A stretch of DNA of 64,000 bases from NCBI GenBank assembly GCA_963798845.1, contig CAWCUS010000003.1, positions 96,001 through 160,000 on the forward strand, written 5' to 3'. Source of the stretch: an uncultured Gemmatimonadales bacterium (lineage in GTDB: Bacteria; Gemmatimonadota; Gemmatimonadetes; Longimicrobiales; RSA9). Below are positions 10,095 through 63,786 of the stretch, one piece after another. The stretch's first letter is position 1; each line of letters begins with the position of its first letter. Position numbers and translations under genes: made by a program. A model generated the notes under the pieces. That model made no database searches, was not told the origin of the DNA, and was given only the letters and a program-made list of their open reading frames with translations.

Positions 10095-10115
10095 ATGGCG
10101 AGGGTGACGTGGGGG

Positions 10116-10160
10116 TTGACGGGGAGCAGCAGCGGCAGTAATCGTGACTTTTGGCACGAT
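10116..10160 (+). promoter_or_regulatory. sigma70-like promoter with overlapping Rex-type operator
   Basis: TTGACG(10116)-N17-TAATCG(10139). Perfect ATCGTG-acttttgg-CACGAT at 10141-10160. Confidence 0.7.
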
Positions 10161-10206
10161 AGACTCCGGCCCGCCCCTGCCGGCTCTGAAAAACGGAAGG
10201 TAGACC

Positions 10207-16574: not shown

Positions 16575-16614
16575 TCACTCGAAGTCGCGAAGCGCACGGA
16601 GGGGGAGCAACCCC

Positions 16615-16992: not shown

Positions 16993-17017
16993 ACGGGGGC
17001 CTCAAGGCCACGCGGGC

Positions 17018-17830: not shown

Positions 17831-17929
17831 AGCGCTTCGTTGCCGCGGCCTCCCTGCCGGCCCCCGATCGGGGCCGGGCCAATTCGTTCCTGCGTTCACG
17901 AATCACTGTGGCCGCTGCCGCGCCCCGCG

Positions 17930-18370: not shown

Positions 18371-18413
18371 GGCTCGCCTCCTTGCTGCGGTATCCAAGCG
18401 ACCCGGTCCGCCG

Positions 18414-18944
18414 TCAGGCGCCGGGCGTGGTGCGTTTCAGCGCCTCCAGGGCGCGTCTGAGGGCGTGGGGCTCCGCCTGGGTGAGCTGGCGGCGCACCTC
18501 GTCCTGGAGGGTGATGCGATCCTCGTCGCCGGGGCTCTCTTCGAGGCCGAGGGCGCGCTGGACGCAGCGGACGTAGTCCAGCGGCTTGACGGGCTTCTCG
18601 AGGTAGACGCCGGGCCCCGATATGACGCGGCTCTCGACAATGTCCTCGAGCTCGGCGCGTCCGAGCTCATCGCGGGCGTGGGCGGTGACGATGAGGACGG
18701 GGATGCGGGAGAGCGCGTGGTCCTTTCGGAGCTCGTAGAGGAGCTTGTGGCCGCTCTTCCCGGGCATGACGAGGTCGAGGGAAATGAAGTCGGGTGGCTG
18801 CTGGCGGATGAGGTCGAGGGCCTCGTCGCCGTCCGAGGCGGTTCGGACCTGAAATCCTGCGTCCCTCAGGATCTGAGCGAGGTAATCGCGGACGTCCGGC
18901 TCATCATCCACCACCAGCACGGTCCTGTCCTGTGGCCGCTCCAT
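18414..18944 (-). CDS. Receiver protein with short helical C-terminal extension
   Basis: VVDDE, LDLVMP, IVTA and EKP. Confidence 0.9.
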   Translation of the reverse strand: MERPQDRTVLVVDDEPDVRDYLAQILRDAGFQVRTASDGDEALDLIRQQPPDFISLDLVMPGKSGHKLLYELRKDHALSRIPVLIVTAHARDELGRAELEDIVESRVISGPGVYLEKPVKPLDYVRCVQRALGLEESPGDEDRITLQDEVRRQLTQAEPHALRRALEALKRTTPGA

Positions 18945-18948: not shown

Positions 18949-20088
18949 TCATCCCTTCGTGTGGTTCTGCCCGTCGGCCCCGTCGGCCTGTTCGGCGGCC
19001 GCGGAGGTGGGCAGCGTGTTGCGAGGCAGCTCGATCCGGAACACCGATCCTTCTCCCTCGTGAGAGGTGAAGGAGATCCGACCCCCGTGCTGGTGCACGA
19101 GGCGGCGTGTGGTCAGGAGCCCGAGGCCGGTGCCACGGTCCGAGCCTTTCGTCGTGAAGAACTTGGAAAACACCTTCCGGCTCAGCTCGTAGTCCATGCC
19201 CTTGCCGTTGTCCGCCACCTCGTAGACCAGGACGCCGTCGTTCTCGGAGACGGTCACGCGGACCACGAACTCGCGGTCCTTGTCGGCCACGGTGCACGCG
19301 TCGATGGCGTTGGAAACCAGGTTGGCCAGGGACGTATGGATCCCGGCCTCGTCCAGCAGCGCCGGGGCGATGCCGTCCTGCGGCTCGAAGTCGAGGCGGA
19401 TGCCGGCGCGGGCGGCACCATCGCGGAACAGATCGACAGCGTTCCTCGCCGGCAGTACCGGGTCGGTGAGGGCGACCACGGCGGGGCGTCCCTTGGCGAA
19501 GTCCAGGAACTCCTTCATGAAGGCGGAGATCCGGTTGACGTTCTGCTCCAGGGTGGTCCAGCCGCGGGCGATGCGCTCGTCGTCGCCGAGCTGGATACCG
19601 GTGTTCACGGCATACATGCCGCCTTCCAGGCCCATGAGGATGTTCTTCACCCCGTGGGCGACGCCGGCCACGGTCTCGCCCACGGCGGCGAGGCGCTCGG
19701 CTTCCCGCTTCTCCCGCTCGAGGCGCTTCACGACGGAGATGTCGGTGGACATCTCAATGACGTAGGGGATGTCGCCGTTGGGTCGGACCAGGGGGACCAT
19801 ATGGACCAGGTAGTCGATCTCCCGGCCATTTCCCATCACGCCCTCCTCCTCCTGCTCCCGGATGGAGCCGTCCGCGAAGGTGGCCAGGGCGGCGCACCGA
19901 AGGCAGGGCTCGTCGCGCCCCTTGTAGACCTGGTAGCAGGGCCGCCCCTGCCAGTCCCCGAACTCCGACTCGAAAGCCAGGTTCGCGTCCACGATCCCGT
20001 AATTGCGCCCGATGACGCTGATGGCGACGGGCACCTCGTCGTAGAGGTGCGTGTGGAGCCAGTCCCGGATCTCGTCCGTGTCCATCAT
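18949..20088 (-). CDS. Cytoplasmic PAS histidine kinase
   Basis: PAS domain with CY.VYKGRDEPCLRC. H-box GVAHGVKN, NLVSNA, DNGKGM, FFTTK and GTGLGL. Start ATG 20088. Confidence 0.9.
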   Translation of the reverse strand: MMDTDEIRDWLHTHLYDEVPVAISVIGRNYGIVDANLAFESEFGDWQGRPCYQVYKGRDEPCLRCAALATFADGSIREQEEEGVMGNGREIDYLVHMVPLVRPNGDIPYVIEMSTDISVVKRLEREKREAERLAAVGETVAGVAHGVKNILMGLEGGMYAVNTGIQLGDDERIARGWTTLEQNVNRISAFMKEFLDFAKGRPAVVALTDPVLPARNAVDLFRDGAARAGIRLDFEPQDGIAPALLDEAGIHTSLANLVSNAIDACTVADKDREFVVRVTVSENDGVLVYEVADNGKGMDYELSRKVFSKFFTTKGSDRGTGLGLLTTRRLVHQHGGRISFTSHEGEGSVFRIELPRNTLPTSAAAEQADGADGQNHTKG

Positions 20089-22193
20089 GGCAGCGATCCT
20101 CCTTCCGTGCCGGGCTGCCGCTCGCGCGTGGCGGCGCGTGCCACGTCCGTGGCTGTCGGGCCGGGCGAGCGCAGGGGCGTGGATGCGGCTGTGGTCCGGG
20201 CGGGCTCGAGCTGCTGGAGGGCGCCGGAACGGTCCGCGTCGTGGCACGTTTCGCAGCGTGCCAGATTCTCGGGATGCTCCCCCGGCTCCGAGCGCAGGGC
20301 CTCCTCGTGGCACGCGATGCACACGCCGTGCATGGCGTCCATGTAGCCCGGGGCGGCGCGCCACCGCTCCTGCGCCGCCGGGATGATCGCGCTCTGCCCC
20401 GCGTCGCGAGCGTGGCACTCCATGCACGCCGTCGACGTGGCGTAGGTCCTGGTCGCGATGCCCGGGGCGTGGCACTGCTGGCAGCCGTCGTTCCCTGCCA
20501 GCGCCTCCACGTGCGACGCATGGTCGAAGACGGCGGTGCTGTCGTACATGTCCCGGTGGCACGCGCCACAGCGGCTCGCTTCCTCGAGCGGGAGATTCAG
20601 GTGATGGCAGGTTCCGCAGCCGTCGTCGCCGCCAGCGCGCTCCACGTGGGCGTCGTGGTCGAACAGGACGGCGTTGCGGTCCCGACCCCCATCGATGAGC
20701 AGCAGCACGGCCTCGCCCGGATCCATCATCCCCGGTCCACCCGTGCCGCCAGCCGCCTCCGTTTCACCCGCTCCGCCGGGGACGTTCGATGCCGGCGATA
20801 CCGCGTGCGCGTGCAGCGTCTCGCTCGCGGCGCCGGCCAGCGCCAGCAGCCTCGCCTGCCCCGGCCGCTCCGAAATGGTCCCGGCCACGGAGCGCGCGTC
20901 CGCCACGGGTACCGGGCGCGGGCGCGCCCCCGAAAGCGGAAGGAACAGGAGCGCGATCACGAAGCCGGCGAGCGCCATCCCGCTGTTCAGGTGGGGGCCC
21001 GCGAGGCGCGGCGGGAGGAGCCCGTGCACGGTGGTGGGCTCGAAGCTCCGAGGCCTGGCGCGGACGGTGTCGGCGGAAACGTCGTCGTACACGCGCAGGT
21101 GCTCGACGAAGAAGATGAAGACCAGCATGAACGCCGACACGATCCCGACGCTCACGGCGAGCTCTTCCCAGCTGGGGAAGTACGGCATGTCCGCAGGCCT
21201 CGCGAACGCCACGACGGAAACGTCCAGCCGGTACAGGATCATGCCGGCCACGGTCATGGCGCCCGCCACGCCCACGCCGCGGATGCTGTTCCGGACCCGC
21301 GGGATGGCCATGAGCACCACGGGGATCCCGGCACTGAGGGCGAGCTCGGCCACGAACAGCACCCCGTGCCAGGACGGCTGAAGCGCACTGACCAGCACGC
21401 CGCGGGCCGCCAGGTCGCCCAGCCGCAGGGCCAGGTACAGCGTGAGCACCACGGCCGCCGCGGCGCCCAGGCCGGACATCTGGCGCCGGTGAAGCGCGTG
21501 GCCGAGGAACCGGTGGGCGAACATGGACTCTGTCACCACCATCGACAGACCCAGAGCTACGGCGGAGACGAAGAAGAGCACGTAGATGATCGGCGAGTAC
21601 CAGAGCGGGTGCAGCCGGTAGGGCGTGATCAGGAAGAGGGAGCCCAGCGACGACTGGTGCAGCGTGGAAAGCATGATCCCCAGGATGACCAGCGGGATCG
21701 TCACCTTCCGGAGCGCGGCCAGAGTCGTGCGGAACGGCCGCCAGCGGAAGAGGGGGTGCTCCAGGATCGCGGGAGCGAACTCCAGCGCCAGGACGGTCAG
21801 GTAGAGCATGACGCACATGGCGACTTCGAACAGCACGGAGTGGTGCTGCCAGTGGAACAGCGGGTGCCAGATGCGCCAGGGGAGACCGAGGTCGTAGAGG
21901 AGCCCCACCGCCACGGCCGCGTAGCCGAGGAACGCCGTGAGCACCGCGGGGCGCGCGAAGGCGTGGTAGCGCTCCAGGTGGAAGATGTACACGGTGGCGG
22001 CCATGACGAACCCGCCAGCCGCCAGCGCAACGCCGGACATGACGTCGAAGCCGATCCAGAGGCCCCACGGGGTCGCGTCGGACAGGTGGGTCACCGCCCC
22101 GAGCCCCCGGGTGTAGCGCACCATGCTGACGGCGACGAGCACGCCGACCAGCGTCCACAATACCAGCTTCAGCCGCACCAGCCGCTCACGCAT
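20085..22193 (-). CDS. HmcC/HybB (NrfD-type) membrane subunit fused to a C-terminal multiheme cytochrome c (6 CxxCH)
   Basis: PWGLWIGFDV..GVALAAGGF, DLGLPWRI, SVLFEV and STLHQSSLG. Then CGTCH, CGACH, CQQCH, CMECH, CIACH and CETCH, with c3-like FDH..H motifs. Confidence 0.88.
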   Translation of the reverse strand: MRERLVRLKLVLWTLVGVLVAVSMVRYTRGLGAVTHLSDATPWGLWIGFDVMSGVALAAGGFVMAATVYIFHLERYHAFARPAVLTAFLGYAAVAVGLLYDLGLPWRIWHPLFHWQHHSVLFEVAMCVMLYLTVLALEFAPAILEHPLFRWRPFRTTLAALRKVTIPLVILGIMLSTLHQSSLGSLFLITPYRLHPLWYSPIIYVLFFVSAVALGLSMVVTESMFAHRFLGHALHRRQMSGLGAAAAVVLTLYLALRLGDLAARGVLVSALQPSWHGVLFVAELALSAGIPVVLMAIPRVRNSIRGVGVAGAMTVAGMILYRLDVSVVAFARPADMPYFPSWEELAVSVGIVSAFMLVFIFFVEHLRVYDDVSADTVRARPRSFEPTTVHGLLPPRLAGPHLNSGMALAGFVIALLFLPLSGARPRPVPVADARSVAGTISERPGQARLLALAGAASETLHAHAVSPASNVPGGAGETEAAGGTGGPGMMDPGEAVLLLIDGGRDRNAVLFDHDAHVERAGGDDGCGTCHHLNLPLEEASRCGACHRDMYDSTAVFDHASHVEALAGNDGCQQCHAPGIATRTYATSTACMECHARDAGQSAIIPAAQERWRAAPGYMDAMHGVCIACHEEALRSEPGEHPENLARCETCHDADRSGALQQLEPARTTAASTPLRSPGPTATDVARAATRERQPGTEGGSLP

Positions 22194-23076
22194 TGGGACC
22201 TCCATCGGTCTCTGGCGACGGGGGCGACGCCGGCGCACCGCCGCGATCCACCTCGGTCGCGTCCTCCGCTCCCACCTCCGCCACGCCGACCGGGTCGACT
22301 CCGGCCACCGGGATGCCCGCCGCCGTCGCGTCCATGGCCAGACGCATGCGCCGCTGGATTACCCAGTAGATCCCCGTCATCAGCGTCCCCATGCCCAGGA
22401 ACACACCGGGCACCTTGTCGAGGGAAGCCCAGGAGAGGAGCGGCAGGGAGCCATCGCCCACGTGCCCTCCCCAACCGAGGAAGCCCAGCGACGCGTCCGA
22501 GATGTAGAGCACCGAGGTGCCGCCCACTTCCGTCTCGCCCCACACGTGGTCGAGGTAGCGGTGCGGATGCGCGGCGACCCGGGCGTGTGCTTCCCGCAGC
22601 AGGTCGTCGCGGGTGCCGAAGAGCAGCGCCTCCTCGGGGCACGCCTCCACACACGCCGGCTGCTTCCCTTCCTTCAGTCGCGGATAGCACATCTCGCACT
22701 TCCGCACGTACGGCACTGCCTCGTCCCAGTCGTAGCGCGGGATGCCGTACGGGCATGCCACCATGCAGTAGCGGCAGCCTATGCAGAGGGAGGAGTCATA
22801 GAGCACCGGCCCTTCCGGCGACTTCTGCATGGCCCCCACGAGGCACGCGCTCACGCACGCCGGCTCGAGGCAGTGACGGCACTGCTGCTTGACGTACAGG
22901 TCACCCGGACGTCGAAGCACGGTGGAGAAGCGGCGGGCGGAAAGGTCGTCCACCGCCTGCTGCCCGGGCCCCATGCCGTCCGGCGGAAGATCGTTCACGT
23001 CCTTGCACGCCAGCACGCACGACTCGCAGCCGACGCAACGTGTGGTGTCCACCAGAATGGCAGGCGAGCGGATCAT
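22186..23076 (-). CDS. HmcB/HybA-like 4x[4Fe-4S] protein with C-terminal TM helix
   Basis: CVGCESCVLAC, CRHCLEPACVSAC, CIGCRYCMVACP and KCEMC...PACVEACP. Confidence 0.88.
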   Translation of the reverse strand: MIRSPAILVDTTRCVGCESCVLACKDVNDLPPDGMGPGQQAVDDLSARRFSTVLRRPGDLYVKQQCRHCLEPACVSACLVGAMQKSPEGPVLYDSSLCIGCRYCMVACPYGIPRYDWDEAVPYVRKCEMCYPRLKEGKQPACVEACPEEALLFGTRDDLLREAHARVAAHPHRYLDHVWGETEVGGTSVLYISDASLGFLGWGGHVGDGSLPLLSWASLDKVPGVFLGMGTLMTGIYWVIQRRMRLAMDATAAGIPVAGVDPVGVAEVGAEDATEVDRGGAPASPPSPETDGGPNA

Positions 23077-23774
23077 ATCGGTTCACCCTCCTTCCCCAGC
23101 GCTGCGGCGACGCGGGTCCCGGCATCCGGGGGCCAGTGCCAGGCCGCTTCGGACACCAGCTGGGCCAGGGGCAGCAGGAGCATGTGGCTGAGCTTGCTGA
23201 GCGGGACGAGCAGGAAGAGCAGGTCCCCGGCGAGCACGTGAGCGAGAAAGACCGGCTGGAACGCGAAGGGGTTCCAGGCGGGGTGCATGGTCATGAAGCC
23301 TGTGACGAACGTGACGCCGATCATGACCGGGAGCGCATAGTCCTGGAAGCGCCCCAGCGCGCGGGCGGCTCGGATCGTCGCCCGCTGGATGATGACGGCG
23401 AGGGCGGCGAGCACCACGGCCACGGTGAGAGCCGTGGCCACGGCGTTCGGCAGTGCGGGCCAGGACAGGCCGATGGCCCGGTCCCAGAGCGCGATGTGGC
23501 CGGCCAGGAAGAGCGGCACGAGGATCACCGCCACATGAAAGACCATGGTGGTGACGCTGTACGGCCACCGCCGCAACAGCCGGCGGGCGGGGAAGAGCCA
23601 GCCGGCCGTGGTCGCCGCCACCTTGCGGACGGGGAGGTTCTTGTCACCTGCCAGGCGACGCACACGGGCCAGCTCCCACGCCACCAGGGCGAGCTCCCGG
23701 AGCAGCCCCAGGACCATGAACGCCAGCGCCGCCCAGAAGAGCGGACCGCGGGCCCAGCTCAGCCATTCCTGCAT
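23073..23774 (-). CDS. HmcE/NarI-like heme b membrane subunit
   Basis: ARGPLF, FHV..ILVPLFLAGHI, AHVLAG and PLSKLSH. Confidence 0.82.
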   Translation of the reverse strand: MQEWLSWARGPLFWAALAFMVLGLLRELALVAWELARVRRLAGDKNLPVRKVAATTAGWLFPARRLLRRWPYSVTTMVFHVAVILVPLFLAGHIALWDRAIGLSWPALPNAVATALTVAVVLAALAVIIQRATIRAARALGRFQDYALPVMIGVTFVTGFMTMHPAWNPFAFQPVFLAHVLAGDLLFLLVPLSKLSHMLLLPLAQLVSEAAWHWPPDAGTRVAAALGKEGEPI

Positions 23775-23777
23775 GGG

Positions 23778-25166
23778 TCAGCCCTCCCCGTTGCCGTGGC
23801 CGTTGCCGTCGCGGCCGCCGAAGTCGATGACGCGGAGCAGGAGGTCGTGCAGACCCACCACCTCCACCTCGTCCAGGCCGTTGTCCTGGCACAGCTCCCG
23901 GAGCTGCTTCTTGCAGTTGGCGCACGGCGCCACCACGTACTTCGCACCCGTCTCCCGGATCTGGTCCGCCTTGCGCTTGCCCAGCGGCCCCGTGCGGAAG
24001 GCCCGGATCTCGTCGATGGAGACGGTCCCGCCCCCACCACCGCAGCAGTAGTTTCGGGTCCGGTTTGGCGTCATCTCGGCGTAGTCCGCGCAGATCGCGG
24101 CAAGGATCTCCCGCGGCTGCTCCGTGATGCGCCCCACCCGGGCGATGTTGCAGGGGTCGTGATAGGTGACCCGCTCCAGGATCTTCTCGTCCTTCAGCGG
24201 GATCCTGCCGGCTTCCAGCTGCTGGTGCGTGTACTCCATGCAGTTCACCACCTGCGGCGCGTCCGGCCCGCAGAAGGTCGGGACGAACCAGGCCGAGCGG
24301 GTGGCGTGGCCGCACTCCCCGACCATGATCTTCTTCGCCCCCAGCCGCTCCGCCTCCGCCACCACGTTCCGGACGATGCGCTCCATTATCCGGTCGCTGT
24401 AGAACAGGCCGTAGTTGATCCCGTCGTAGTTGTGCGTCCCGATGGTCCAGGAGCCCCCGGTGACATGCATCACGGCCGCGTTCCCCATGAGCGTGTCCGC
24501 TTCCATGATGAAGTCGGAGACGGCGGGGAAGAACGCGAACTCGGCCCCCTCCACGTCGAACGGGTACTTCACGTCCACACCGTAGATGTCGTGGAGCTCC
24601 TCCTCCAGGAACTCGCACGTGTCCTTCAGCGCCGGGAGCGGAATCGCCGACGTGTTCCCCGTCTTTCCGTCCAGCTGCTCGCGCACGGACACGAGCAGGG
24701 CTCGCGGGATGATCCCCACCTCGGCCAGGACCCAGCGCGCCAGGTGCGTGACCAGCCCGTGGTCCAGCCCCATGGGGCAGCTGTCCTTGCACCGGCGGCA
24801 CGCCGTGCAGCGATAGTAGTCCTCCGCCATCCGGTCGATGTACTCGTCCGTGAGCGTGAAGCCACCCCCCAGGCGCGCCTTCAGGATCCCCCACGACGTG
24901 AAGTAGCGGCGGTACACCCGCAGCAGCAGCTCCGAGCGCTCGCAAGGGATGTCACGGTCCTCGCCCGTCGCCTCGTAGAGCTGGCACTCCGCCGCGCACC
25001 GACCGCAACGGGCACTCAACCGCGCGTAAGTCTCCAGCGCCACCTGGTAGCTCCCGTGCTCCAGGATCGCCGAGAACGCCTCAAGGAACCGCCGCGGACG
25101 CTCCGTCAGCCCCAGCGCCCGCTGCTCCACGTGATAGCTGTACTTCGTCGGTGTCGGCACCTTCAC
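23778..25166 (-). CDS. HmcF/HdrD-like (Fe-S)-binding CCG-domain protein
   Basis: SARCGRCAAEC, CTACRRCKDSCP, GECGH, YHDPC, YCCGGGGG and PCANC. GTG start with GGAG RBS. Confidence 0.85.
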   Translation of the reverse strand: MKVPTPTKYSYHVEQRALGLTERPRRFLEAFSAILEHGSYQVALETYARLSARCGRCAAECQLYEATGEDRDIPCERSELLLRVYRRYFTSWGILKARLGGGFTLTDEYIDRMAEDYYRCTACRRCKDSCPMGLDHGLVTHLARWVLAEVGIIPRALLVSVREQLDGKTGNTSAIPLPALKDTCEFLEEELHDIYGVDVKYPFDVEGAEFAFFPAVSDFIMEADTLMGNAAVMHVTGGSWTIGTHNYDGINYGLFYSDRIMERIVRNVVAEAERLGAKKIMVGECGHATRSAWFVPTFCGPDAPQVVNCMEYTHQQLEAGRIPLKDEKILERVTYHDPCNIARVGRITEQPREILAAICADYAEMTPNRTRNYCCGGGGGTVSIDEIRAFRTGPLGKRKADQIRETGAKYVVAPCANCKKQLRELCQDNGLDEVEVVGLHDLLLRVIDFGGRDGNGHGNGEG

Positions 25167-53400: not shown

Positions 53401-54054
53401 ATGGCGATCATCACCATCTCGCGTGGATCTCTCAGCGGTGGCCGAATCGTGGCAGAGTGCCTTGCCGAGCACCTGGGCTACCCGTGCGTGGCCCACGAAG
53501 TCCTGCGCGGCGCCGCCCGGCGGCTGGGGCTCGCGGAAGACGTGGTCCGCGAGAAGTTCGAGACCCCTCCTCGCCTCTGGTCGCGGCTGAGCCGCGACCG
53601 GGAGGTCTACCTGCTGGCCGTCAAAACGGCCCTCGCCGACAAGTGCCTGGACGGCTGCCTGGTGTACCACGGCCCCGCTGGACAGTTCTTCCTCGCCGGG
53701 GTCCCCTGCGTGCTCTCCGTCCGGCTGATCGCTCCGCTGCAGCAGCGGGTGCGGGCGCTGACCGGCCCGCATCACCGGCTCACGCGCAAAGCCGCCCTCG
53801 AGTTCATCGAGAACGTGGACGAGGAGCGGCGGCGCTGGGCGCGGTTGATGTTCGGGGCGGACGTCGAGGATCCGTCGCTGTACGACCTCACGGTGAACCA
53901 GCGCTTCCTCTCGGTGGAGACCGCGTGCGTCGCGGTCGCCGAGGCCGCGGGTCAGCCGGAGTTTCAGGTCACCGACGAGGCGCTCTCCGAGCTCACTTCG
54001 TTCGCGGCATCGTGTCACGACCGGCTGGACGCTCTCCTGGACGGAGAGGAGTGA
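53401..54054 (+). CDS. Cytidylate-kinase-like family protein
   Basis: MAIITISRGSLSGG, VYHG, VRLIAP and YDLTVN. Confidence 0.8.
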   Translation: MAIITISRGSLSGGRIVAECLAEHLGYPCVAHEVLRGAARRLGLAEDVVREKFETPPRLWSRLSRDREVYLLAVKTALADKCLDGCLVYHGPAGQFFLAGVPCVLSVRLIAPLQQRVRALTGPHHRLTRKAALEFIENVDEERRRWARLMFGADVEDPSLYDLTVNQRFLSVETACVAVAEAAGQPEFQVTDEALSELTSFAASCHDRLDALLDGEE

Positions 54055-54057
54055 GCC

Positions 54058-54876
54058 ATGGCCATCATCGCCATCTGCCGGGGCAGCAAGAGCGGTGGGG
54101 GGGCCATGGCCCGCTGCCTGGCGGACGGCCTCGGCTATCCGATCCTCGGGCGGGAGATCGTGCAGGACGCCGCCGCAGAGCTGGGGGTGCCGGCGCAGCT
54201 GCTGGAGCAGCGGATGGACGCCCGTCCCACGCTCTGGAGCCGGTTCTCGAGCCTGAGGCGGACGTACATGGTGGCCGTACAGGCCGCGATGGCGGAGTAC
54301 GTGGTGGAGGGCGATCTGGTCTACCACGGGCTGGCGGGAGGTCTCCTGCTGCGCGGACTTCCGGCCACGCTGTCGCTGCGCCTGATCGCGCCCCTGGAGT
54401 ACAGGAAGCGGGCGGTCGTCGCGGCATCCGAAATGGATGACGCCATGGCCGAGGCCTACGTCCGGGAGCTGGACGAGACGCGTGGGCAATGGGTGAAGGT
54501 GATGTACGGAGAGGACATCGCCGATCCGAGGCTTTTCGACATGGTGGTGAGCCTGGGCAAGCTGACCATCGAGGGGGCGTGCGCAGTGGTGGTGAAGACC
54601 ATCCAGCGTCCCGAGTACCAGATCACCGAGGAGGTCCGGGCGCGGCTGATGGACTTCCGGTCCGCCTGCCGGGTGAAGCTCGCCCTGGTTCGTGACAGCG
54701 AGCTGAGCGGGCTGGACCTGGACGCCGCCGTGGAGGACGGCGCGGTGGTGATCACCGGAGAAGCACCGCTGCTGAAGGGTGGACGGACGGGGAACCGCAT
54801 CGTGGAGCTGGCCCGCTCGGTCCCGGGCGTGGACGAGGTCCGGCTCAAGGTGGAGTGGTTCGACCCTTACCCGTAG
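54058..54876 (+). CDS. Cytidylate-kinase-like family protein with BON-like domain
   Basis: MAIIAICRGSKSGG, VYHG and LRLIAP. C-terminal DGAVVITG...VPGVDEV. Confidence 0.8.
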   Translation: MAIIAICRGSKSGGGAMARCLADGLGYPILGREIVQDAAAELGVPAQLLEQRMDARPTLWSRFSSLRRTYMVAVQAAMAEYVVEGDLVYHGLAGGLLLRGLPATLSLRLIAPLEYRKRAVVAASEMDDAMAEAYVRELDETRGQWVKVMYGEDIADPRLFDMVVSLGKLTIEGACAVVVKTIQRPEYQITEEVRARLMDFRSACRVKLALVRDSELSGLDLDAAVEDGAVVITGEAPLLKGGRTGNRIVELARSVPGVDEVRLKVEWFDPYP

Positions 54877-54934
54877 GCGAACAATGTTCCGGCCCGTCCG
54901 CCGCAGGAGCGGCGAGCGGCCAGGAGTGAGCGAT

Positions 54935-55933
54935 ATGTCGTACCAGCGCTACGTTTGCGCCGCAGGGAGCGTCATTCCGGTCACGCTCGCGCTCCTGCTC
55001 TGTGCCGTTGCGCCCGTGGTCGCACAGCACGCGGCGCAGGACGCCACGGAGCTCGCCGCCATGCAGGCTGCGGTGAGCGAGCACGCCTGGTGGTTCTGGC
55101 CGGCCGTGCTGTTCGGGATGACGTTCGTCATGGGCATACTGGCGGCAGTGGCCGGCGTGGGCGGCGGCGTGCTCTTCGTCCCCATCGTCAGCGGCTTCTG
55201 CCCGTTCCACCTGGACTTCGTGCGCGGCACCGGTCTGCTGGTGGCGATGTCCGGTGCGCTGGCGGCGGGCCCCGGTTTCCTGCGCATGAATCTGGCCAGC
55301 CTGCGCCTGGCCATGCCCGTGGCGCTCATCGCCTCCGCGTGCGCCATAGCGGGCGCCATGGTGGGGCTGGCACTCCCAACCAACGTGGTCCAGACTGCGC
55401 TGGGGGCGTCCATTCTCGGCATCGTGGTGATCATGATCCGGGCGAAGAAGTCCGCATTCCCCGTGGTGGCGCGTGCGGACCGGCTGTCCACGGCGCTGGG
55501 CATCTCGGGCGTCTACATGGAGGCAAGCCTCGGGCGCGAAGTGGACTGGAAGATCCATCGCACGCTGCCGGGGCTGATCCTGTTCATCGCCATCGGCTTC
55601 ATGGCCGGCATGTTCGGCCTGGGCGCGGGGTGGGCCAACGTCCCCGTGCTGAACCTGCTGCTGGGCGCGCCGCTCAAGGTGAGCGTGGCCACCAGCAAGT
55701 TCCTCCTGTCCATCACAGACACGTCCGCCGCCTGGATCTACCTGAACCAGGGGTGCGTCATCCCCCTGCTCGTGGTTCCCTCTCTCGTCGGGATCATGCT
55801 CGGGTCCTTCGTGGGCGTGCGCGTGCTCAAGGTGGCGAAGCCGGCTTTCGTTCGCTGGATGGTCATCGCGCTCCTGATCTTCTCGGGAGCAAAGGCGATG
55901 ACGAAGGGTCTCGGACTTCCGTTCTTCTTCTGA
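54935..55933 (+). CDS. TauE/SafE family transporter
   Basis: AGVGGGVLFVP, GLGAGWANVP and VATSKF. Start ATG 54935 after AGGAG. Confidence 0.88.
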   Translation: MSYQRYVCAAGSVIPVTLALLLCAVAPVVAQHAAQDATELAAMQAAVSEHAWWFWPAVLFGMTFVMGILAAVAGVGGGVLFVPIVSGFCPFHLDFVRGTGLLVAMSGALAAGPGFLRMNLASLRLAMPVALIASACAIAGAMVGLALPTNVVQTALGASILGIVVIMIRAKKSAFPVVARADRLSTALGISGVYMEASLGREVDWKIHRTLPGLILFIAIGFMAGMFGLGAGWANVPVLNLLLGAPLKVSVATSKFLLSITDTSAAWIYLNQGCVIPLLVVPSLVGIMLGSFVGVRVLKVAKPAFVRWMVIALLIFSGAKAMTKGLGLPFFF

Positions 55934-55958
55934 CCCGGGACAAGCGGGAGGTGCAGCG

Positions 55959-56408
55959 ATGAGCGAACCGACACGGAGCGCCCGGCCGAGCGAAGAGCAG
56001 CGCCTCTACGCCACGATCCTGGCCGCCGGCATGTACACGGGGCTGGCGCTGCTGCTGATCACCTTCGCCCTCTACATCTTCGGCGTGATCGAGCCGGCCG
56101 TGCCGGTGGACCGGCTGGAGACGTACTGGACGCTGAGCGTGGACCGCTTCAACGAAGTGATCAACGCGGAGTACCTGCACCGCGACCACGCGCTGAGCGG
56201 CTGGTGGTGGCTGTCGGCGCTGGGACGGGGCGACTACCTGAACCTCGTCGGTATCGCCGTCCTCTCCGGCGTGACGGTGCTCTGCTTCATCGGCATCATC
56301 CCGGTCCTCATCCGGAAGCGGGACTGGGTCTACGCCGCCATCGCGGTCGTCGAGGTGCTGATCCTCGTGCTGGCGGCCAGCGGCATCCTGGCCGTGGGCG
56401 GGCACTGA
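55959..56408 (+). CDS. DUF1634-like membrane protein (TauE partner)
   Basis: Three TM segments, EQ..YA, GW.WL...GDYLN..GIA.L and C-terminal LAASGIL..GH. Confidence 0.75.
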   Translation: MSEPTRSARPSEEQRLYATILAAGMYTGLALLLITFALYIFGVIEPAVPVDRLETYWTLSVDRFNEVINAEYLHRDHALSGWWWLSALGRGDYLNLVGIAVLSGVTVLCFIGIIPVLIRKRDWVYAAIAVVEVLILVLAASGILAVGGH

Positions 56409-57253
56409 TGCGCTTCCTCCCCGTCGGCCTGGACCTGCGCGACCGGCCCTGCGTGGTGGTGGGCGGCGGCGCCGTGGGGACGCGCAAGGCGCGCACCCTG
56501 GCCCGGGTGGGTGCCCGTGTCACCATCGTCTCTCCGGAGATCGGCGAGGAGCTGGCGGGCGACGTGAAAGCCGGGCGGATCCGCTGGCTACGCGAGCCGT
56601 TCCGCCCCGAGCACCTCGAAGGCGCGCGCGTGGCGGTGCTGGCGACGGACGACGCGGCGCTGAACGCGCGCGCGGCACGGGAGGCGTCGGCCCGGGGGAT
56701 CCTGGCGTGCGATGCCTCCTCGGCCGACGGAACGGAGCTGATCTTCGGCGCGCTCGTGGAGCACGATGGCGTCACTCTGGGCGCGTTCACGGACGGGCGC
56801 GATCCCGCCCGGGCGAGGCGGATCCGGGACGCCGTGGCGCTCTGGCTGGGCGCGCCGCGGCCGAACGGCTCGCCATCCGCGCCCACCGACGCACTGCTGG
56901 TGCTGGCGGCGCACGGTAGCCGGGACCCCGCGTGGGGCCGACCCCTGGAAGCGCTGGCGGAGGCGCTGCGCAAGCGCACCGGCGACCAGCGCGTGCGCCT
57001 CGCATACGTGCAGTTCGCATCCCCTTCCCTGGAGGACGTGGTGGCGGACGCCGCCCGCTCCGGCATCCGGCGCGTCCGCGTGCTGCCGCTGTTCATGACG
57101 GCGGAAGGGCACGTGGAGCGCGACATCCGACCGGCGGTGGATGCGCTCCGCCGGATCCATGCAGAGATCGAGGTGACGCTGCTCCCACCCGTGGGACAGC
57201 TCCCTTCGTTTGAACGGCTTCTGGCCGATATCGCTTTGGAGGCAACCCGATGA
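56408..57253 (+). CDS. Precorrin-2 dehydrogenase (SirC/CysG-N) fused to a CbiX/SirB-type chelatase
   Basis: VVGGGAVGTRK and ATDD..LN, then AHGSRDP and PLFM..GHVERDI. Confidence 0.85.
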   Translation: MRFLPVGLDLRDRPCVVVGGGAVGTRKARTLARVGARVTIVSPEIGEELAGDVKAGRIRWLREPFRPEHLEGARVAVLATDDAALNARAAREASARGILACDASSADGTELIFGALVEHDGVTLGAFTDGRDPARARRIRDAVALWLGAPRPNGSPSAPTDALLVLAAHGSRDPAWGRPLEALAEALRKRTGDQRVRLAYVQFASPSLEDVVADAARSGIRRVRVLPLFMTAEGHVERDIRPAVDALRRIHAEIEVTLLPPVGQLPSFERLLADIALEATR

Positions 57254-57287
57254 GTCCTGTCCTCGACCCCCGGCTCCGGAGGAACGC

Positions 57288-58844
57288 ATGATCACCCCGG
57301 CGCGCCCGAAACCCGGAACGGTGTACCTCGTCGGAGCGGGCCCGGGGCATCCAGGGCTGCTCACGCTGCGAGCGGTGGAGTGCCTGAAGAAGGCCGACCT
57401 GGTCATGTACGACTATCTGGCCAACGCCTCCCTGGTGGAGCACGCCAGGCCGGACGCGGAGCTGATGCGGCTCGGCCACCACAACGGCGGTCCCCGCCTC
57501 TCCCCCGCCGAGATCATCGCGCTCATGGTGAAGGAAGCGGCCGCGGGGAAGTGCGTGGTGCGGCTGAAGGGAGGCGACCCGAGCATTTTCGCCCGGGGCG
57601 GCGACGAGGCGACGGCATTGCGCGAGGCCGGCCTTCCCTTCGAGATCGTCCCCGGCATCACCTCCGGGCTGGCGCTGGCGGCGTTCGCCGAGATCCCGCT
57701 CACGCACTTCGAGGACGCATCGGCCGTGGCGCTGGTGACCGGACGGGAGCGGGATGCCAAGCTGGCCAACGACGACTGTCACCTCGACTACGCCGGGCTG
57801 GCCGCTTTCCCGGGCACGCTCGTGTTCTACATGGCGGTAAAGGGGACGCAGTCGTGGAGCAGTGCGCTGATGGCCGAGGGGAAGTCACCGGACACGCCAG
57901 TGGCGATCGTGCGCTGGTGCAGCAGGGCCTGGCAACAGACCGTGCGCTGCACGCTGGGCACCGTGGCGGAGGTGGTGGAAAGCACGGGACTCCGTCCACC
58001 CGCGCTGTTCGTCGTGGGGAAGGTGGTGGCGCGCACGCCTCGCCTGAGCTGGTTCGAGTCGCGCCCGCTGTTCGGCTCGACGGTCCTGGTGGCGGGGTCC
58101 GCCAGCACGGCGGGCCGCCTGCGCGAGCGGCTGGCGGAGGCGGGAGCGGAGGTGATCACGCAGCCGGCGATCCGGATCACGCCACCTGAGACATGGGTGC
58201 CGGTGGACGACACACTGGGGCGCATCGCGACGTACGACTGGCTGGTGCTCTCGACGCCCAACGCCGTGGACTCGCTCCTCGACCACATCGACGCGCGGGG
58301 CGGCGACGCGCGCTGGCTGGGCGGAGTGAAGATCGTGGCGCTGGGCTCGGGGACGGTCGATCGCCTCACGGCGCACCGGCTGAAGCCGGACCTGACCCCC
58401 GAAGGCTACCGCCCCGCCATCCTGGCCCGCACGCTGACTCAAACCGGCGCGGGGCGCGTCCTTCTGGCCCGCTCGCACGGCGAGCGACCGATCTTGGCGG
58501 CCGAGCTCGAGAAAGCGGGTGCGACGGTGGGTGAGATCGTCGTCTACGGGACGGCGGAAGTGCTGGAGCCGGACCCGGACGTCGCGATGTCGCTGGTGGA
58601 GGAGGAGATCGACTGGGTGGCCGTGACCAGCCCGGCCACCGCCCGATCGCTGGACCGTTTGTACGGGAGCGCCCTGCGCACTGCGCGCATCGCCTCCATC
58701 AGCCCGCTCACGTCGGCAGCGCTGCGCGAGCTCGGGCTGGAGCCGGACGTGGAAGCCGCCCCGGCCACGGTGGCCGGGCTCGTGGACGCCATAGCCGCGG
58801 CGGTCCCCCGCCTTGCCGTGGCCGAGACCGCGGGAGTTCCGTAA
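57288..58844 (+). CDS. cobA: Uroporphyrinogen-III C-methyltransferase/synthase fusion (CobA-HemD)
   Basis: VYLVGAGPG, RLKGGDP and VPGITS. HemD motifs LSTPNAV, VTSPAT and SISPLTS. Confidence 0.92.
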   Translation: MITPARPKPGTVYLVGAGPGHPGLLTLRAVECLKKADLVMYDYLANASLVEHARPDAELMRLGHHNGGPRLSPAEIIALMVKEAAAGKCVVRLKGGDPSIFARGGDEATALREAGLPFEIVPGITSGLALAAFAEIPLTHFEDASAVALVTGRERDAKLANDDCHLDYAGLAAFPGTLVFYMAVKGTQSWSSALMAEGKSPDTPVAIVRWCSRAWQQTVRCTLGTVAEVVESTGLRPPALFVVGKVVARTPRLSWFESRPLFGSTVLVAGSASTAGRLRERLAEAGAEVITQPAIRITPPETWVPVDDTLGRIATYDWLVLSTPNAVDSLLDHIDARGGDARWLGGVKIVALGSGTVDRLTAHRLKPDLTPEGYRPAILARTLTQTGAGRVLLARSHGERPILAAELEKAGATVGEIVVYGTAEVLEPDPDVAMSLVEEEIDWVAVTSPATARSLDRLYGSALRTARIASISPLTSAALRELGLEPDVEAAPATVAGLVDAIAAAVPRLAVAETAGVP

Positions 58845-60457
58845 TGCAGATCGTCTGCGTATCCAGGGGCTCGCTGTCAGCGGGCCGGGAGCTGGCCGAC
58901 AATCTCGCCGCCAAGCTCGGCTACCCGGTTCTGAGCCGGGAGAAGCTGATCGAGGAGGCGACGCACGAGGGCATCCAGGTGGGGAAGCTCGAGACCGCCA
59001 TGATGAACCCGCGTGCGTTCACCGAGCGGCTCGCGAGGGAGCGGGATCACTATCTCGCCTTCTGCACGTCGTACCTGTGCGACCGCCTGGAGGAAGGGCC
59101 GCTGGTCTACCATGGCCGGACGGGTCACCTCCTGCTGAGAGGGATCAGCCACGTGCTGCGGGTGCGGGTCGTGGCGGACGAGGAATACCGGATCGCGAGC
59201 GTGATGCGCGAGCTCGGGCTGGAGCGGGAGAAGGCCCGGGCGTACCTGAAGGCGGTGGAAGAGGACCGTCGCAACTGGACGCGTGCGATGTACGGCGCCT
59301 CTTCCGAGGAGGCGGAGCAGTACGACGTGGTGGTGAACATCGAGCGCATGAGCGTGGGGAACGCCGCTGCGTCGCTGGTGGACATGTGCCAGCTCCCGGA
59401 CTTCCAGGCGACGCCGGCATCCCGCCGGGCGATGGAGGACCTGCGGGTCTCGGCACGAGCCCGTCTGCTCCTGGCCCGCGACCCGCGCACCAACCGCTTC
59501 GGCTTCTCGGTCGGCACGCACGACGGCGTCCTGACCGTCACCTTCCTTCCGCACGACGCCGAGGTCGCCCCTCACATCGAGCCCGTGCTCCAGCCGCTGG
59601 CGGGCGTGGACGAGATCCGGGCGACCATGGCTGCCACGACCATCCTGTGGGTGCAGGAGGCGTTCGATCCGGCCTCCGACACCTTCAGGGACGTGGTGGA
59701 GATCGCGGGCAAGTGGAACGCGGCCGTCGAGCTGGTTCGCTACACGGCCGACGCCGCGGGGCGAGGAGGCCACGGCCCGGGAGCCGCCGCACCGGTGCGG
59801 GAAGCCGTGGCGGCGGGCGGGGTGGTGGACTCTGCGGCCACGGCCGCAACCGCGGCGGGAGCGGGCGGCGCGGGAGCGGCGACGATCGTCGCGCCGCCGA
59901 TCATCGCGGCAGCCCCCGGCGGAATCGAGGAGGACGTGGACGAAGAGCCCGCCGTGGACGAAGGGCTCAAGGCCACGTTGGACGCGCTGGCGCGGCTCGG
60001 TCGCGCGGGCGGTGCCCGCCACGTCCGCGGCTCCCGGGGAAGCCTGATCGCGTCGTGCTGCGGAGGGGTTCCGCACTCGATGGTGGTGCTGGGCGAGCTG
60101 TTCCTGGGCAGCCCGCACGCCGCGAGGCTGCGGCTGACGCGCGAGCTGCGCGGCTCCATCTCGGACCGGGTCAAGGTGCCGGTCGTGACGACGGACGAGC
60201 TGCGCACGCAGTACCTGTTCGGTCACCGTGACCTGTTCCGGCTCCTGGGGTGGGTCGCAGTCGTGCTCGCGCTTTACGTGGTGGCCTTCACCCACCAGCC
60301 GGCCATGCTCCGCTTCCTGGCGAGCGGGGGCGACGCGCTCAGCGGGACCGTGGGAAGGCTGCTGGTCTCAGCGGCCGTGTTCGTGTTCGTGCCCATCGTC
60401 GCCTTCTCCTACGGGACGGTGGCGCGGCTGCTCATGAAGCTGATCCGGATGGAGTAG
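58844..60457 (+). CDS. Multidomain cytidylate-kinase-like / BON-like / USP-like protein with two C-terminal TM helices
   Basis: VSRGSLSAG, VYHG and YDVVVN. DGVLTV..GVDEI. USP-like ILW...AVELV...MVVLG...VPVVT. Two hydrophobic helices at the C terminus. Confidence 0.75.
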   Translation: MQIVCVSRGSLSAGRELADNLAAKLGYPVLSREKLIEEATHEGIQVGKLETAMMNPRAFTERLARERDHYLAFCTSYLCDRLEEGPLVYHGRTGHLLLRGISHVLRVRVVADEEYRIASVMRELGLEREKARAYLKAVEEDRRNWTRAMYGASSEEAEQYDVVVNIERMSVGNAAASLVDMCQLPDFQATPASRRAMEDLRVSARARLLLARDPRTNRFGFSVGTHDGVLTVTFLPHDAEVAPHIEPVLQPLAGVDEIRATMAATTILWVQEAFDPASDTFRDVVEIAGKWNAAVELVRYTADAAGRGGHGPGAAAPVREAVAAGGVVDSAATAATAAGAGGAGAATIVAPPIIAAAPGGIEEDVDEEPAVDEGLKATLDALARLGRAGGARHVRGSRGSLIASCCGGVPHSMVVLGELFLGSPHAARLRLTRELRGSISDRVKVPVVTTDELRTQYLFGHRDLFRLLGWVAVVLALYVVAFTHQPAMLRFLASGGDALSGTVGRLLVSAAVFVFVPIVAFSYGTVARLLMKLIRME

Positions 60458-61626: not shown

Positions 61627-62232
61627 ATGGCGGACATGAAGAAGAAGATCGAGGACTGGATGGTCCGGGTCTCGTTCGCGGAAGCCAATGCGGACGAGGA
61701 AGGATTTCGGGTCACGGGGGAGCCGGTGGACCGGAAAACGACCCTGGCGCTGGACCGGATCCGCATGGTGCGGAACGAGCGGGCGTCTGAGCGCGGCACG
61801 GAGGATGACATGGCCGAGACGGGCGAGACATTCGCGGGGCTTCCCGGAGGCGACCTGAGCGTCATGGTGATCGATGACGAGCCGATCGTCGGGAAGCGGC
61901 TGAAGCCCGCGCTGGAGAAGGCGGGATTCACCGTGGAGTGCTACGAACACCCGGCCGCGGCGGTGTCCAGGCTGGCGGAGAAGGAGTTCGATATCGTCGT
62001 GACAGACCTCCGGATGGAGGGGATGGACGGTATCGAGATACTCGAGCACGTGATGGCGCACTGCGAGCACACGCGCGTGATCCTGATCACCGGCTACGCC
62101 ACGGTGGAAGTGGCGCGGGAAGCGCTGGTGAAGGGAGCGTTCGACTTCATTTCGAAGCCGTTCAAGCCCCGGGACCTGCGGGCGGTGATCAACAAGGCGG
62201 CGCTTTCACTCGGATACCAGGGGATCATCTAG
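61627..62232 (+). CDS. Receiver-domain protein with N-terminal extension
   Basis: IDDE, VTDLRM, LITGY and ISKPF. In-frame internal RBS and ATG at 61810. Confidence 0.88.
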   Translation: MADMKKKIEDWMVRVSFAEANADEEGFRVTGEPVDRKTTLALDRIRMVRNERASERGTEDDMAETGETFAGLPGGDLSVMVIDDEPIVGKRLKPALEKAGFTVECYEHPAAAVSRLAEKEFDIVVTDLRMEGMDGIEILEHVMAHCEHTRVILITGYATVEVAREALVKGAFDFISKPFKPRDLRAVINKAALSLGYQGII

Positions 62233-62241: not shown

Positions 62242-63786
62242 GTGCCTTCGTCAAATCCGGGTGCCGAGGGCGCCTCTCCGCTGGACGCGATGGCGGACGA
62301 GGCGCAGCGCGCGTTCCAGGCGAGGCGGAGCCTGTCGATCCGCACGCGTCTCACGCTCGGGCTGCTGCTGTGGCTGGCCCTGAGCCTCGGCGTGACCGTG
62401 GTGTCGATCCTCATCCTCGGGCGGGTCCAGACCAAGCTCGACTCCGTGGGCGCGGTCGAGCGGTACGCGTTCGAGATCCAGCAGGCCAGGCGCTTCGAGA
62501 AGAACTACTTCCTCTACGGCACGAACCTCCCGGATGCGCTGGACGGCGTGCACACGGCGGGCGGGCTGCTGGAGCGGGAGCGTGGGAGCATCGCGTCGGT
62601 GCTCGGGCAGGCGGCGCTGGACACCATGCGTCTGCACGTGCAGCGCTACGAGGAGCTGCTGGCGCGGCTGCCGGCGCTGCGGGCGGAAGCGGACGCGCGG
62701 CGGCTCGCGACGATCGAGGCGGAGCTTCGGGTGCACGGCGCCGAGATGGTGCTCATGTCGGAGGAGCTGTCGACGCGTGAGCGGCGCAGTGTCGAGTCGC
62801 TGCTGGTGACGTCCCAGCGGATGGCGGTGGCGTTCCTGGTGCTCCTCCTCTTCGTGATCGGGCTGTTCGGCGTGTTCGTGGTGCGCCAGATCCTGGCGCC
62901 GCTCGACCGGATCATGCGCGCGACGCGCCGGATCGCAGAAGGCGACCTCACGCCGATCACTCCCCGGCGGCGCTACCACGACGAGTTCAGCGAGCTGGCC
63001 GGAGCGATCAACTACATGATGAGCGAGCTGGTGCGGCGGCAGCAGCTGCTGGTGCAGACGCACAAGCTGCAGGCCATCGGGACGCTGACGGCAGGGGTGG
63101 CGCACGAGCTGAACAACCCGATCAACAACATCATGCTCACGGCCGACAGCCTGCAGGAGGACTACCAGGAGCTGACGGACGGGGATCGGCTGGACATGGT
63201 GGCCGATCTGGTGCACGAGTCGGAGCGCGCGCGCGGCATCGTCCGCAATCTCCTCGACTTCGCACGTCAGACGGAGACGGAGCTGACGCCGCTGGACGTG
63301 GAGCAGATCGTGGGCGAGACGCTCCAGCTGGCGAGCAACCAGGTGAAGATCGCGAAGGTCAAGGTGCAGGGCGAGGTGGAGGAGAACGTGCCGCCGGTTT
63401 TCGGGGACCGGCAGCAGCTGATCCAGGTGTTCCTGAACCTGGTGCTCAATGCGCTCCACGCCATGCCGGGAGGTGGCATCCTCACGATTGGCGTGGAGAA
63501 GTCGGAGGACCGGAACTTCGTCGACATCTCGTTCGCGGACACGGGTACCGGGATCGCGTCGCAGCACCTTTCACGCATTTTCGACCCGTTCTTCAGCACG
63601 AAGAAGCAGGCGCGGGGCACGGGGCTCGGGTTGAGCGTGTCGCTGGGGATCATCAAGCAGCACGGCGGGGACATCCGGGTGAAGAGCGCGGAAGGCGAGG
63701 GGGCGGTCTTCACAGTCTCGCTCCCGGTAGCGCGGGTACCCGCGTCGATGGAGAGCGCGGAGGCGGCGCTGGCGGCGGAGACCTGA
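62242..63786 (+). CDS. Membrane sensor histidine kinase (paralogue of 10207..11742)
   Basis: GVAHELNNP, QVFLNLVLNA, DTGTGI and GTGLGL. Periplasmic EIQQARRFEKNYFLYGT. Confidence 0.92.
   Translation: MPSSNPGAEGASPLDAMADEAQRAFQARRSLSIRTRLTLGLLLWLALSLGVTVVSILILGRVQTKLDSVGAVERYAFEIQQARRFEKNYFLYGTNLPDALDGVHTAGGLLERERGSIASVLGQAALDTMRLHVQRYEELLARLPALRAEADARRLATIEAELRVHGAEMVLMSEELSTRERRSVESLLVTSQRMAVAFLVLLLFVIGLFGVFVVRQILAPLDRIMRATRRIAEGDLTPITPRRRYHDEFSELAGAINYMMSELVRRQQLLVQTHKLQAIGTLTAGVAHELNNPINNIMLTADSLQEDYQELTDGDRLDMVADLVHESERARGIVRNLLDFARQTETELTPLDVEQIVGETLQLASNQVKIAKVKVQGEVEENVPPVFGDRQQLIQVFLNLVLNALHAMPGGGILTIGVEKSEDRNFVDISFADTGTGIASQHLSRIFDPFFSTKKQARGTGLGLSVSLGIIKQHGGDIRVKSAEGEGAVFTVSLPVARVPASMESAEAALAAET

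Follow-up and report, generated by a model that had tools for sequence, protein, structure and literature searches.

A membrane-anchored protein with cytidylate-kinase-like, BON-like and USP-fold domains as a probable accessory subunit of a TauE/TSUP permease linked to dissimilatory sulfur metabolism

In this study we analyzed 64,000 nucleotides (nt) of DNA from an uncultured Gemmatimonadales bacterium (contig CAWCUS010000003.1, positions 96,001 to 160,000), referred to here as the window, and focused on an open reading frame (ORF) that encodes a membrane-anchored protein of 537 aa directly upstream of a gene for a TauE/TSUP family permease, designated TauE2. The protein combines a cytidylate-kinase-like (CMK-like) domain, a BON-like domain, a universal stress protein (USP) fold and a C-terminal transmembrane (TM) hairpin. 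We regard it, with moderate confidence, as a non-catalytic accessory and probably regulatory subunit of TauE2. The two genes, together with a receiver-only (REC-only) response regulator and a HAMP histidine kinase, would form a four-gene cassette of dissimilatory sulfate/sulfite metabolism, in which a ligand or the receiver would gate the permease for a sulfur oxyanion.

The ATG of the ORF shares one base with the TAA stop of the upstream cobA-hemD gene (TAATG). The ORF ends with a TAG at 60455-60457, and the ATG of the TauE gene follows after 4 nt at 60462; an initial annotation, made from the sequence alone, had given both the ORF and this gap correctly. G+C content at third codon positions is 0.91, similar to that of the adjoining genes. 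A full-length AlphaFold2 model built on 46 homologues has a mean predicted local distance difference test score (pLDDT) of 84.4 and a predicted template modelling score of 0.80, and only residues 306-362 fall to pLDDT <50. It displays a nucleoside monophosphate (NMP)-kinase-like domain (1-182), an alpha-beta-beta-alpha-beta unit (191-262), an interrupted alpha/beta domain (265-457) and two helices (461-483 and 502-533). This corresponds to the order PF13189 part, BON-like part, USP fold with a disordered Ala/Gly linker inside it, and a C-terminal pair of TM helices. The four-part architecture proposed in the initial annotation is borne out by the PF13189 match, by this confident model and by the large number of protein clusters with the same layout (see below). 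PF13189 was the sole Pfam match of the whole product, and zero NCBIfam families matched it at E<=0.01. When the C-terminal 365 residues were compared with Pfam, first undivided and then as three segments, the only matches at E<=10 were DUF6814 (E 0.011) and DUF5345 (E 0.27), both on the TM part and below the cut-offs; for the C-terminal 86 residues DUF6814 was the sole match, with the same E value and again below cut-off. Invariant residues in the family alignment are spread over all three soluble domains (R32, Y89, G91, R92, G94, R108, D141, W145, W291, E296, R430 and R433).

At least 478 protein clusters with the whole architecture were retrieved by a profile search at E<=1e-30, so the architecture is kept far beyond chance. 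A word-indexed search with residues 170-537 yielded 103 clusters, nearly all of ~500 aa and with PF13189 in front. The best 120 of the at least 478 profile matches are all metagenomic proteins or proteins of metagenome-assembled genomes (MAGs), with no cultured, named carrier among them; where a protein name is given, it is 'cytidylate kinase', 'cytidylate kinase-like family protein' or 'hypothetical protein'. Among species-representative genomes, 182 stretches encode a relative, and 80 of them were kept for the analysis of loci. The titles of these 80 name Gemmatimonadota, Latescibacterota, Armatimonadetes, Acidobacteriota, Elusimicrobiota, Ignavibacteriaceae, Fibrobacteraceae, Planctomycetota, Thermodesulfobacteriota/Desulfobacterales, Pseudomonadota, Anaeromyxobacter, Abyssobacteria and Eiseniibacteriota. 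The family is therefore widespread, in more than ten phyla, and is not a chance fusion.

With residues 263-537 as query against 1.84 billion representatives, phmmer returned 166 proteins, all of them full-length family members or their fragments, and no separate gene for the USP-fold domain and/or the TM hairpin was found among these matches, nine short ones of which were inspected. Their starts lie within the BON-like domain, the linker, the USP-fold domain or shortly ahead of the hairpin; judging by their sequences, the nine look like cut fragments or proteins with mis-called starts. The initial annotation had described a 'Rosetta-stone fusion', which overstates the case for a conserved family, and had asked whether the hairpin occurs elsewhere as a separate small gene before TauE; none was found, the short matches being cut at the N-terminus, and this failure to find a split form does not prove that none exists.

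Gene neighbourhoods were compared by tblastn of the window proteins on the 80 loci, with partial TauE genes at contig ends included in the TauE2 counts. In 78/80 loci a TauE2 orthologue is encoded on the same strand no more than 600 nt downstream, and inspection of one further locus (L021) revealed it behind a broken match to the target, which brings the count to 79/80. The spacers calculated from projected starts are mostly 4-100 nt, with a median of ~29 nt. TauE2 is more conserved than the target in 77/78 loci (median identity 68.6% vs 46.3%). The REC-only regulator follows TauE2 in 66/78 loci and the HAMP histidine kinase in 49/78, and many loci end early. This wider unit, present in most loci, and its tracking of genomes with dsrAB were absent from the initial annotation. 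The sole exception to the pairing, L029, has no TauE downstream. Its relative of the target (L029:147-1589; title naming a Chromatiaceae MAG) has 480 aa, 83% coverage and a divergent C-terminus, and comparison of the downstream ORFs with Pfam gave nothing informative except ATP_bind_1. For the REC-only regulator, the whole protein matches in Gemmatimonadota-type loci, and only the receiver part, without the N-terminal extension (61627-61860), in many other phyla (57-63% coverage).

TauE2 matches PF01925 at E 9.9e-36 (124 bits, gathering cut-off 32.6), and its alignment has a mean column identity of 71% across phyla. In the target, hydropathy windows of >=1.6 are restricted to around residues 471-480 and 507-522, so that hydropathy and model together support the membrane tether proposed initially. 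The complex of TauE2 with target residues 263-537 was predicted in three runs, with three controls and our own alignments. The interface score ipSAE was 0.64, 0.67 and 0.70 (median 0.67), and the best of the three controls reached 0.00. The ipSAE mark applied here is reached by 116/157 solved complexes and 2/215 mismatched pairs, a comparison that is rough only, as our own alignments were used. The runs had at least 68% of contacts in common, with a partner pLDDT of at least 62. The predicted interface comprises target residues 477-536 and TauE2 residues 6-13, 63-71 and 240-273; it includes conserved residues of the target (Q485, L489, V512, P517, A520, Y523, G524) and invariant residues of TauE2 (H64, G67, G250, D253, R255, Y273). 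A search for solved structures related to TauE2 by sequence gave 0 matches at E<=0.01, so the result is unlikely to stem from a remembered structure. The model supports, but does not show, binding of the hairpin to TauE2, and the physical link to the TauE product that the initial annotation had put forward finds its counterpart in this predicted contact.

The PF13189 (Cytidylate_kin2) match covers residues 3-167 with E 1.6e-30 and 107 bits against a gathering cut-off of 28. When the full-length model was searched with Foldseek, the best matches were 3hdt (3hdt_A, E 1.9e-9) and 3fdi, at E 1.9e-9 to 5.9e-8, followed by CMP, shikimate, adenylate and dephospho-CoA kinases at E 8e-5 to 2.5e-3; all these kinase-fold matches fell on the N-terminal domain only. 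The canonical Walker A motif is G-x4-G-K-[ST]. The P-loop of the target, G9-SLSA-G14-R15-E16, departs from it, and the family follows a G-x4-G-[K/R/E]-E pattern. Over 46 aligned sequences, from which the columns of the P-loop and the USP loop were counted, the P-loop glycines are largely kept (G9 in 43/46, G14 in 39/46). The position of the Walker A lysine holds K in 29/46, R in 9/46, as in the target, and E in 4/46, and the next residue is E in 33/46 and S or T in 0/46. No NCBIfam kinase equivalog matches the target at E<=0.01, and the soluble CMK-like paralogues score 27-33 bits against TIGR02173, for which the cut-off is 102. With G91, R92, G94, R108 and D141 invariant, a remnant of the NMP site seems to have been retained.

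The assignment of the second domain is based on a family profile, paralogues and topology. Pfam BON (PF04972) has no match at E<=10 to residues 173-276 or to the whole C-terminal part, and OsmY (8rjx) is matched by the family profile (E 0.0083, positions 196-259). A 272-aa CMK+BON paralogue of the window (54058-54876) shares 31% identity with residues 1-276 (E 6e-34), and Pfam BON scores 23.2 bits in it, below its cut-off of 27; in another paralogue (17018-17899) it scores 33.2 bits, above the cut-off. The model of this region has the alpha-beta-beta-alpha-beta topology. The label 'BON-like' is reasonable, not proven, for the copy in the target.

Since Foldseek of the full-length model returned the kinase fold only, the USP region was folded alone. 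Residues 263-460 were modelled with the family alignment at a pLDDT of 80.6 and compared by VIA-align with 48,161 representative chains; ranks 1-10 were all USPs (1jmv, 1mjh, 3s3t, 3tnj, 4wny, 3fg9, 4r2l, 3hgm, 1q77 and 3qtb), with Z 9.3-10.6, 117-132 residues aligned and root mean square deviations of 3.6-5.2 A. A Z of >=8 was reached by 22 chains only, and other Rossmann-like folds are close behind at Z ~8-9. Foldseek of the same model also placed USPs best (1jmv_C, E 3.1e-3, then 5ahw), with none at E<=1e-3, and Pfam PF00582 (Usp) had no match in the target at E<=10. In the model, residues 263-457 form a USP-like fold that stands alone by sequence, and the fold search thus agrees with the USP-like pattern recognized in the initial annotation. 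The Ala/Gly-rich insert that it had placed at ~59745-59920 matches residues 303-362, which contain 22 Ala and 13 Gly in 60 positions. In the family alignment it is the linker that varies in length, and the window copy exceeds most others by ~35 residues.

The ATP motif of nucleotide-binding USPs is G-x2-G-x9-G-[ST]. At this site the target has G417-x2-F420, K423 and then the invariant R430 and R433, with no G-[ST]. Nucleotide sensing is unproven and no ligand can be named, because both canonical ATP motifs are degenerate. The 'two nucleotide-sensing domains' of the initial annotation, whose interpretation is partly supported as a whole, are not sustained: in the kinase-like domain there is no Ser/Thr after the lysine position, which is Arg in the target, and the USP ATP motif is replaced. 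Despite the lost motifs, either domain may still have a ligand site.

A link to dissimilatory sulfur metabolism was found both in the window and across genomes. The cassette is preceded by a dissimilatory sulfur island, two CMK-like genes, a second TauE gene (TauE1), a DUF1634-like gene and the siroheme genes, in this order. In the island, the DsrL-like gene encodes an NAD(P)-binding protein and the DsrN-like gene an amidase, and dsrA scores 584 bits (cut-off 393). Within a sample of 401 genomes from the same phylum, where carriers were those with the full-length protein, dsrA was over its cut-off in 8 genomes: 4/5 carriers (G000, G059, G167 and G116, not G018) and 4/396 non-carriers. A second sample of 401 genomes was centred on G403, whose locus L046 is titled Acidobacteriota; here the target was found at E<=1e-100 in 24 genomes and dsrA at E<=1e-60 in 42, with dsrA in 22/24 carriers (not G731 and G740) and 20/377 non-carriers. 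Ten carrier genomes from other phyla, picked via the presence of the feature itself, possess dsrA in 9/10 cases (not G407). As a separate observation in the Acidobacteriota-centred sample, the dsrA matches of G502, G693, G561, G490, G572, G463, G477, G623, G473, G653 and G442 contain one internal stop (TAG, TAA or TGA), which may be read-through at the gene end or a real feature.

Table 1. Features of the window around the target ORF.
Feature	Residues	Positions	Strand	Evidence
Near-complete dissimilatory sulfur island: Rex, aprB, aprA, qmoA/B/C-like, sat, dsrC, dsrMKJOP, dsrA, dsrB, DsrL-like, DsrN-like		29731-53387	one strand	
sirC/cbiX		56408-57253		
cobA-hemD		57285-58844		
Whole ORF, membrane-anchored CMK-like/BON-like/USP-fold protein		58844..60457	+	537 aa, open frame
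PF13189 cytidylate-kinase-like (NMP-kinase fold) domain, degenerate Walker A	1-182	58844..59389	+	Pfam, Foldseek, P-loop column counts
BON-like alpha-beta-beta-alpha-beta domain	191-262	59414..59629	+	profile match to OsmY, paralogue homology, model topology
USP-fold domain, first half (beta1-alpha1-beta2)	263-302	59630..59749	+	model, fold searches
Disordered Ala/Gly-rich linker, length-variable, ending in a conserved GGIEED motif	303-372	59750..59959	+	pLDDT, composition, alignment gaps
USP-fold domain, second half, invariant R430 and R433	373-457	59960..60214	+	model, fold search, alignment
TM helix 1	461-483	60224..60292	+	model, hydropathy; in predicted interface
TM helix 2, conserved P517, A520, Y523, G524; followed by KLIKME-type C-terminal tail	502-533	60347..60442	+	alignment, model, hydropathy; in predicted interface
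TauE/TSUP permease (TauE2), predicted partner, 366 aa		60462..61562	+	Pfam PF01925, alignment, synteny, predicted complex
Receiver-only response regulator, 75-aa N-terminal extension	REC 79-188	61627..62232	+	Pfam; 66/78 loci
Membrane histidine kinase (HAMP-HisKA-HATPase)		62242..63786	+	Pfam; 49/78 loci, many of them cut short

Parts of the protein can be compared with known systems. The solved PF13189 members 3hdt and 3fdi match its N-terminal 170 residues; they are soluble, of ~200 aa and of unknown function, whereas the target adds the BON-like, USP-fold and TM parts and the pairing with a permease. USP folds associated with a membrane transporter or sensor include TeaD of the TRAP transporter TeaABC (3hgm), the USP domain of KdpD (7ji4) and the C-terminal regulatory domain of KCC-1 (6vw9), with fold matches of Z 9.4, 8.4 and 8.7, respectively; the roles of these USP parts are regulatory. 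Unlike them, the USP-fold domain of the target has no sequence relationship to the group and no ATP motif, contains a disordered linker of 60-70 residues, and is joined in one protein with a kinase-like domain and a TM hairpin. The CMK-like+BON paralogues of the window (54058-54876 and 17018-17899) lack the USP-fold domain and the TM hairpin of the target, although the former, like the target, precedes a TauE gene. The product of that gene, TauE1, is only distantly related to TauE2 (32% over 90 residues) and is followed by the DUF1634-like gene. DUF1634 partners are, as the hairpin here, small membrane elements beside TauE, but their genes follow the permease whereas the target gene precedes it, and comparison of the C-terminal 86 residues with Pfam detected no similarity of the hairpin to DUF1634.

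The nearest described case is the operon DVU2957-DVU2964 of Desulfovibrio vulgaris Hildenborough, compared here by description only. Its genes may be orthologous to those of the cassette. An excerpt of PMC4641369 describes the operon (DVU2956/DVU2957-DVU2964(67)) as sigma-54 dependent and labels it 'transmembrane transport', and DVU2958 appears as a putative membrane protein in an excerpt of PMC8359166. Like the cassette, the operon comprises a putative membrane protein and regulators, whereas no sigma-54 activator is encoded in the cassette here. Excerpts of the study by Marietou et al. (PMC5840216) propose TSUP 'clade B', including DVU2958, Adeg_0175 and Dret_2118, as a sulfate transporter of some sulfate reducers, state that in two such organisms the only candidate for sulfate transport belongs to a highly conserved TSUP clade, and leave open how sulfate enters sulfate reducers without known carrier families. 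A TauE-family protein complemented an E. coli delta-cysA strain, that is, for sulfate uptake, according to an excerpt of PMC11535334. In the literature we found nothing that connects PF13189 or cytidylate-kinase-like proteins with TauE/TSUP or dsr; the one paper with both 'TauE' and 'cytidylate kinase' has the two terms in unrelated passages. New in this study are the test of the USP fold inside the fused protein, the predicted hairpin-permease contact with controls and the counted association with dsrA.

From the computed architecture, folds, gene pairing, dsrA link and complex, we infer how substrate, direction of transport, gating and the receiver might fit together. The C-terminal TM hairpin would pack on conserved helices of the permease and would keep the NMP-kinase-like, BON-like and USP-fold domains at the inner face of the membrane. 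The soluble domains and the conserved C-terminal tail are probably cytoplasmic, since there is no signal peptide and the two TM helices lie at the very end. The target, TauE2, the REC-only regulator and the HAMP kinase would constitute a four-gene cassette that closes the sat-apr-qmo-dsr island. The cytoplasmic domains may respond to a small ligand, to the phosphorylated receiver without output domain whose gene lies two genes downstream, or to both, and would then switch the permease for a sulfur oxyanion, sulfate or sulfite, between open and closed. A bolder form of this proposal, to which we give a small chance, is a dedicated signal-gated sulfate/sulfite gate with TauE2 as the main permease. 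The partner would then sense AMP, adenosine phosphosulfate (APS) or sulfite via the remnant NMP pocket (G91-R92-x-G94, R108, D141) or the arginine-rich USP loop (R430, R433) and also receive the phosphorylated receiver, and transport would be matched to the state of sat-apr-dsr.

Several results weigh against a regulatory subunit dedicated to sulfur metabolism. The P-loop and the USP ATP motif are both degenerate, and no ligand can be named for them. The confident interface consists of the TM hairpin alone, with the USP-fold domain outside it and the cytoplasmic domains unplaced relative to the permease, and the complex score is the model's own confidence only. About half of the genomes with dsrA are without the cassette (20/42 in the Acidobacteriota-centred sample and 4/8 in the own-phylum sample), so the cassette is not essential to the pathway. 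There are also carriers without dsrA (G018, G731, G740 and G407, whose assemblies are incomplete or of unknown completeness), and in G059 the gene lies ~578 kb away from dsrA. Because the sampled relatives are not independent, the contingency counts overstate the support. Finally, TauE2 is likened to clade B of Marietou et al. and to DVU2958 by description, not by sequence.

Four rival explanations were weighed. Transporter/kinase co-sensing pairs exist elsewhere, and the permease with its anchored partner could be such a 'trigger transporter', an input that reports flux or the cytoplasmic sulfur or energy state to the kinase and the receiver. The frequent presence of both signalling genes after TauE2 is in line with this, as is the lack of an output domain in the regulator, which must therefore act through protein contacts; the D. 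vulgaris operon with its 'transmembrane transport' label also holds regulators (excerpt of PMC4641369). However, the histidine kinase has ~130 residues between two hydrophobic segments, read by eye, that could be a sensor domain of its own, and the conservation of TauE2 is far above what a mere sensor scaffold would need, which leaves co-sensing a modest chance of being right. A purely structural subunit, whose hairpin serves the folding, stability or oligomerisation of this TSUP subfamily and whose cytoplasmic domains have no gating role, would agree with an interface confined to the hairpin. DUF1634 proteins accompany other TauE genes, and in the window the gene after TauE1 encodes a small membrane protein similar to DUF1634 (E 0.0019, under the Pfam cut-off). 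In Dissulfuribacter, according to an excerpt of PMC13490349, a TauE protein is co-regulated with a 'transmembrane protein co-occurring with TauE/SafE'. Yet ~460 cytoplasmic residues are conserved over more than ten phyla with invariant positions in all three domains, which is hard to square with a mere anchor, and we consider this explanation improbable.

An active membrane-bound nucleotide kinase, acting for example on AMP, CMP or APS-related nucleotides beside the permease, is suggested by the NMP-kinase fold with its matches to CMP, shikimate, adenylate and dephospho-CoA kinases and by the invariant GR.G motif (G91, R92, G94), R108 and D141. It is very improbable in view of the P-loop, where the lysine is present in fewer than two thirds of the sequences and replaced by Arg in the target, and the following residue is mostly Glu, with Ser or Thr in none. 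In addition, the target matches no NCBIfam kinase model, and its nearest structural matches, 3hdt and 3fdi, come from structural genomics and have no known function. Chance adjacency of an unrelated stress-type membrane protein and a TauE gene would account for the 480-aa relative of L029 that has no TauE downstream, but it is barely credible for a pair kept in 79/80 loci of more than ten phyla with short spacers, and the complex prediction passes its controls.

The window contains further genes of the same and related families. A second permease module at 53401-56408 consists of two CMK-like genes in tandem, of which the second has a BON match below the threshold, the distant TauE paralogue TauE1 and the DUF1634-like membrane gene, and this module is kept upstream of the target in many Gemmatimonadota loci. 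The region 13590-18944 encodes a 994-aa fusion of PPDK_N, PEP-utilizers and receiver domains along with three receiver-only proteins and, on the minus strand, a fourth CMK-like+BON protein (17018-17899) whose BON is above the Pfam cut-off; it resembles a further signalling module built on this pseudo-kinase family. The region 8695-11742 contains a weak match to YeiH putative sulfate exporters (96.6 bits, cut-off 232.6), which adjoins another histidine kinase. On the minus strand at 20085-25166 is an Hmc/Tmc-like membrane redox complex with HmcC-, HmcB-, TmcC- and DsrK/TmcB-like genes, all below the equivalog cut-offs.

The cassette is a concrete candidate for sulfate entry: TauE2 is among the most conserved TSUP permeases here, has an obligatory anchored partner and its own signalling pair, and is found almost only in genomes with dsrA. 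If the reading as a signal-gated sulfate/sulfite gate is true, it would mean that transporters can be controlled in a new manner, by a pseudo-kinase/USP subunit. The pairing with TauE2 would also provide a first functional context for PF13189 proteins, which are named kinases in the databases despite their degenerate P-loop.

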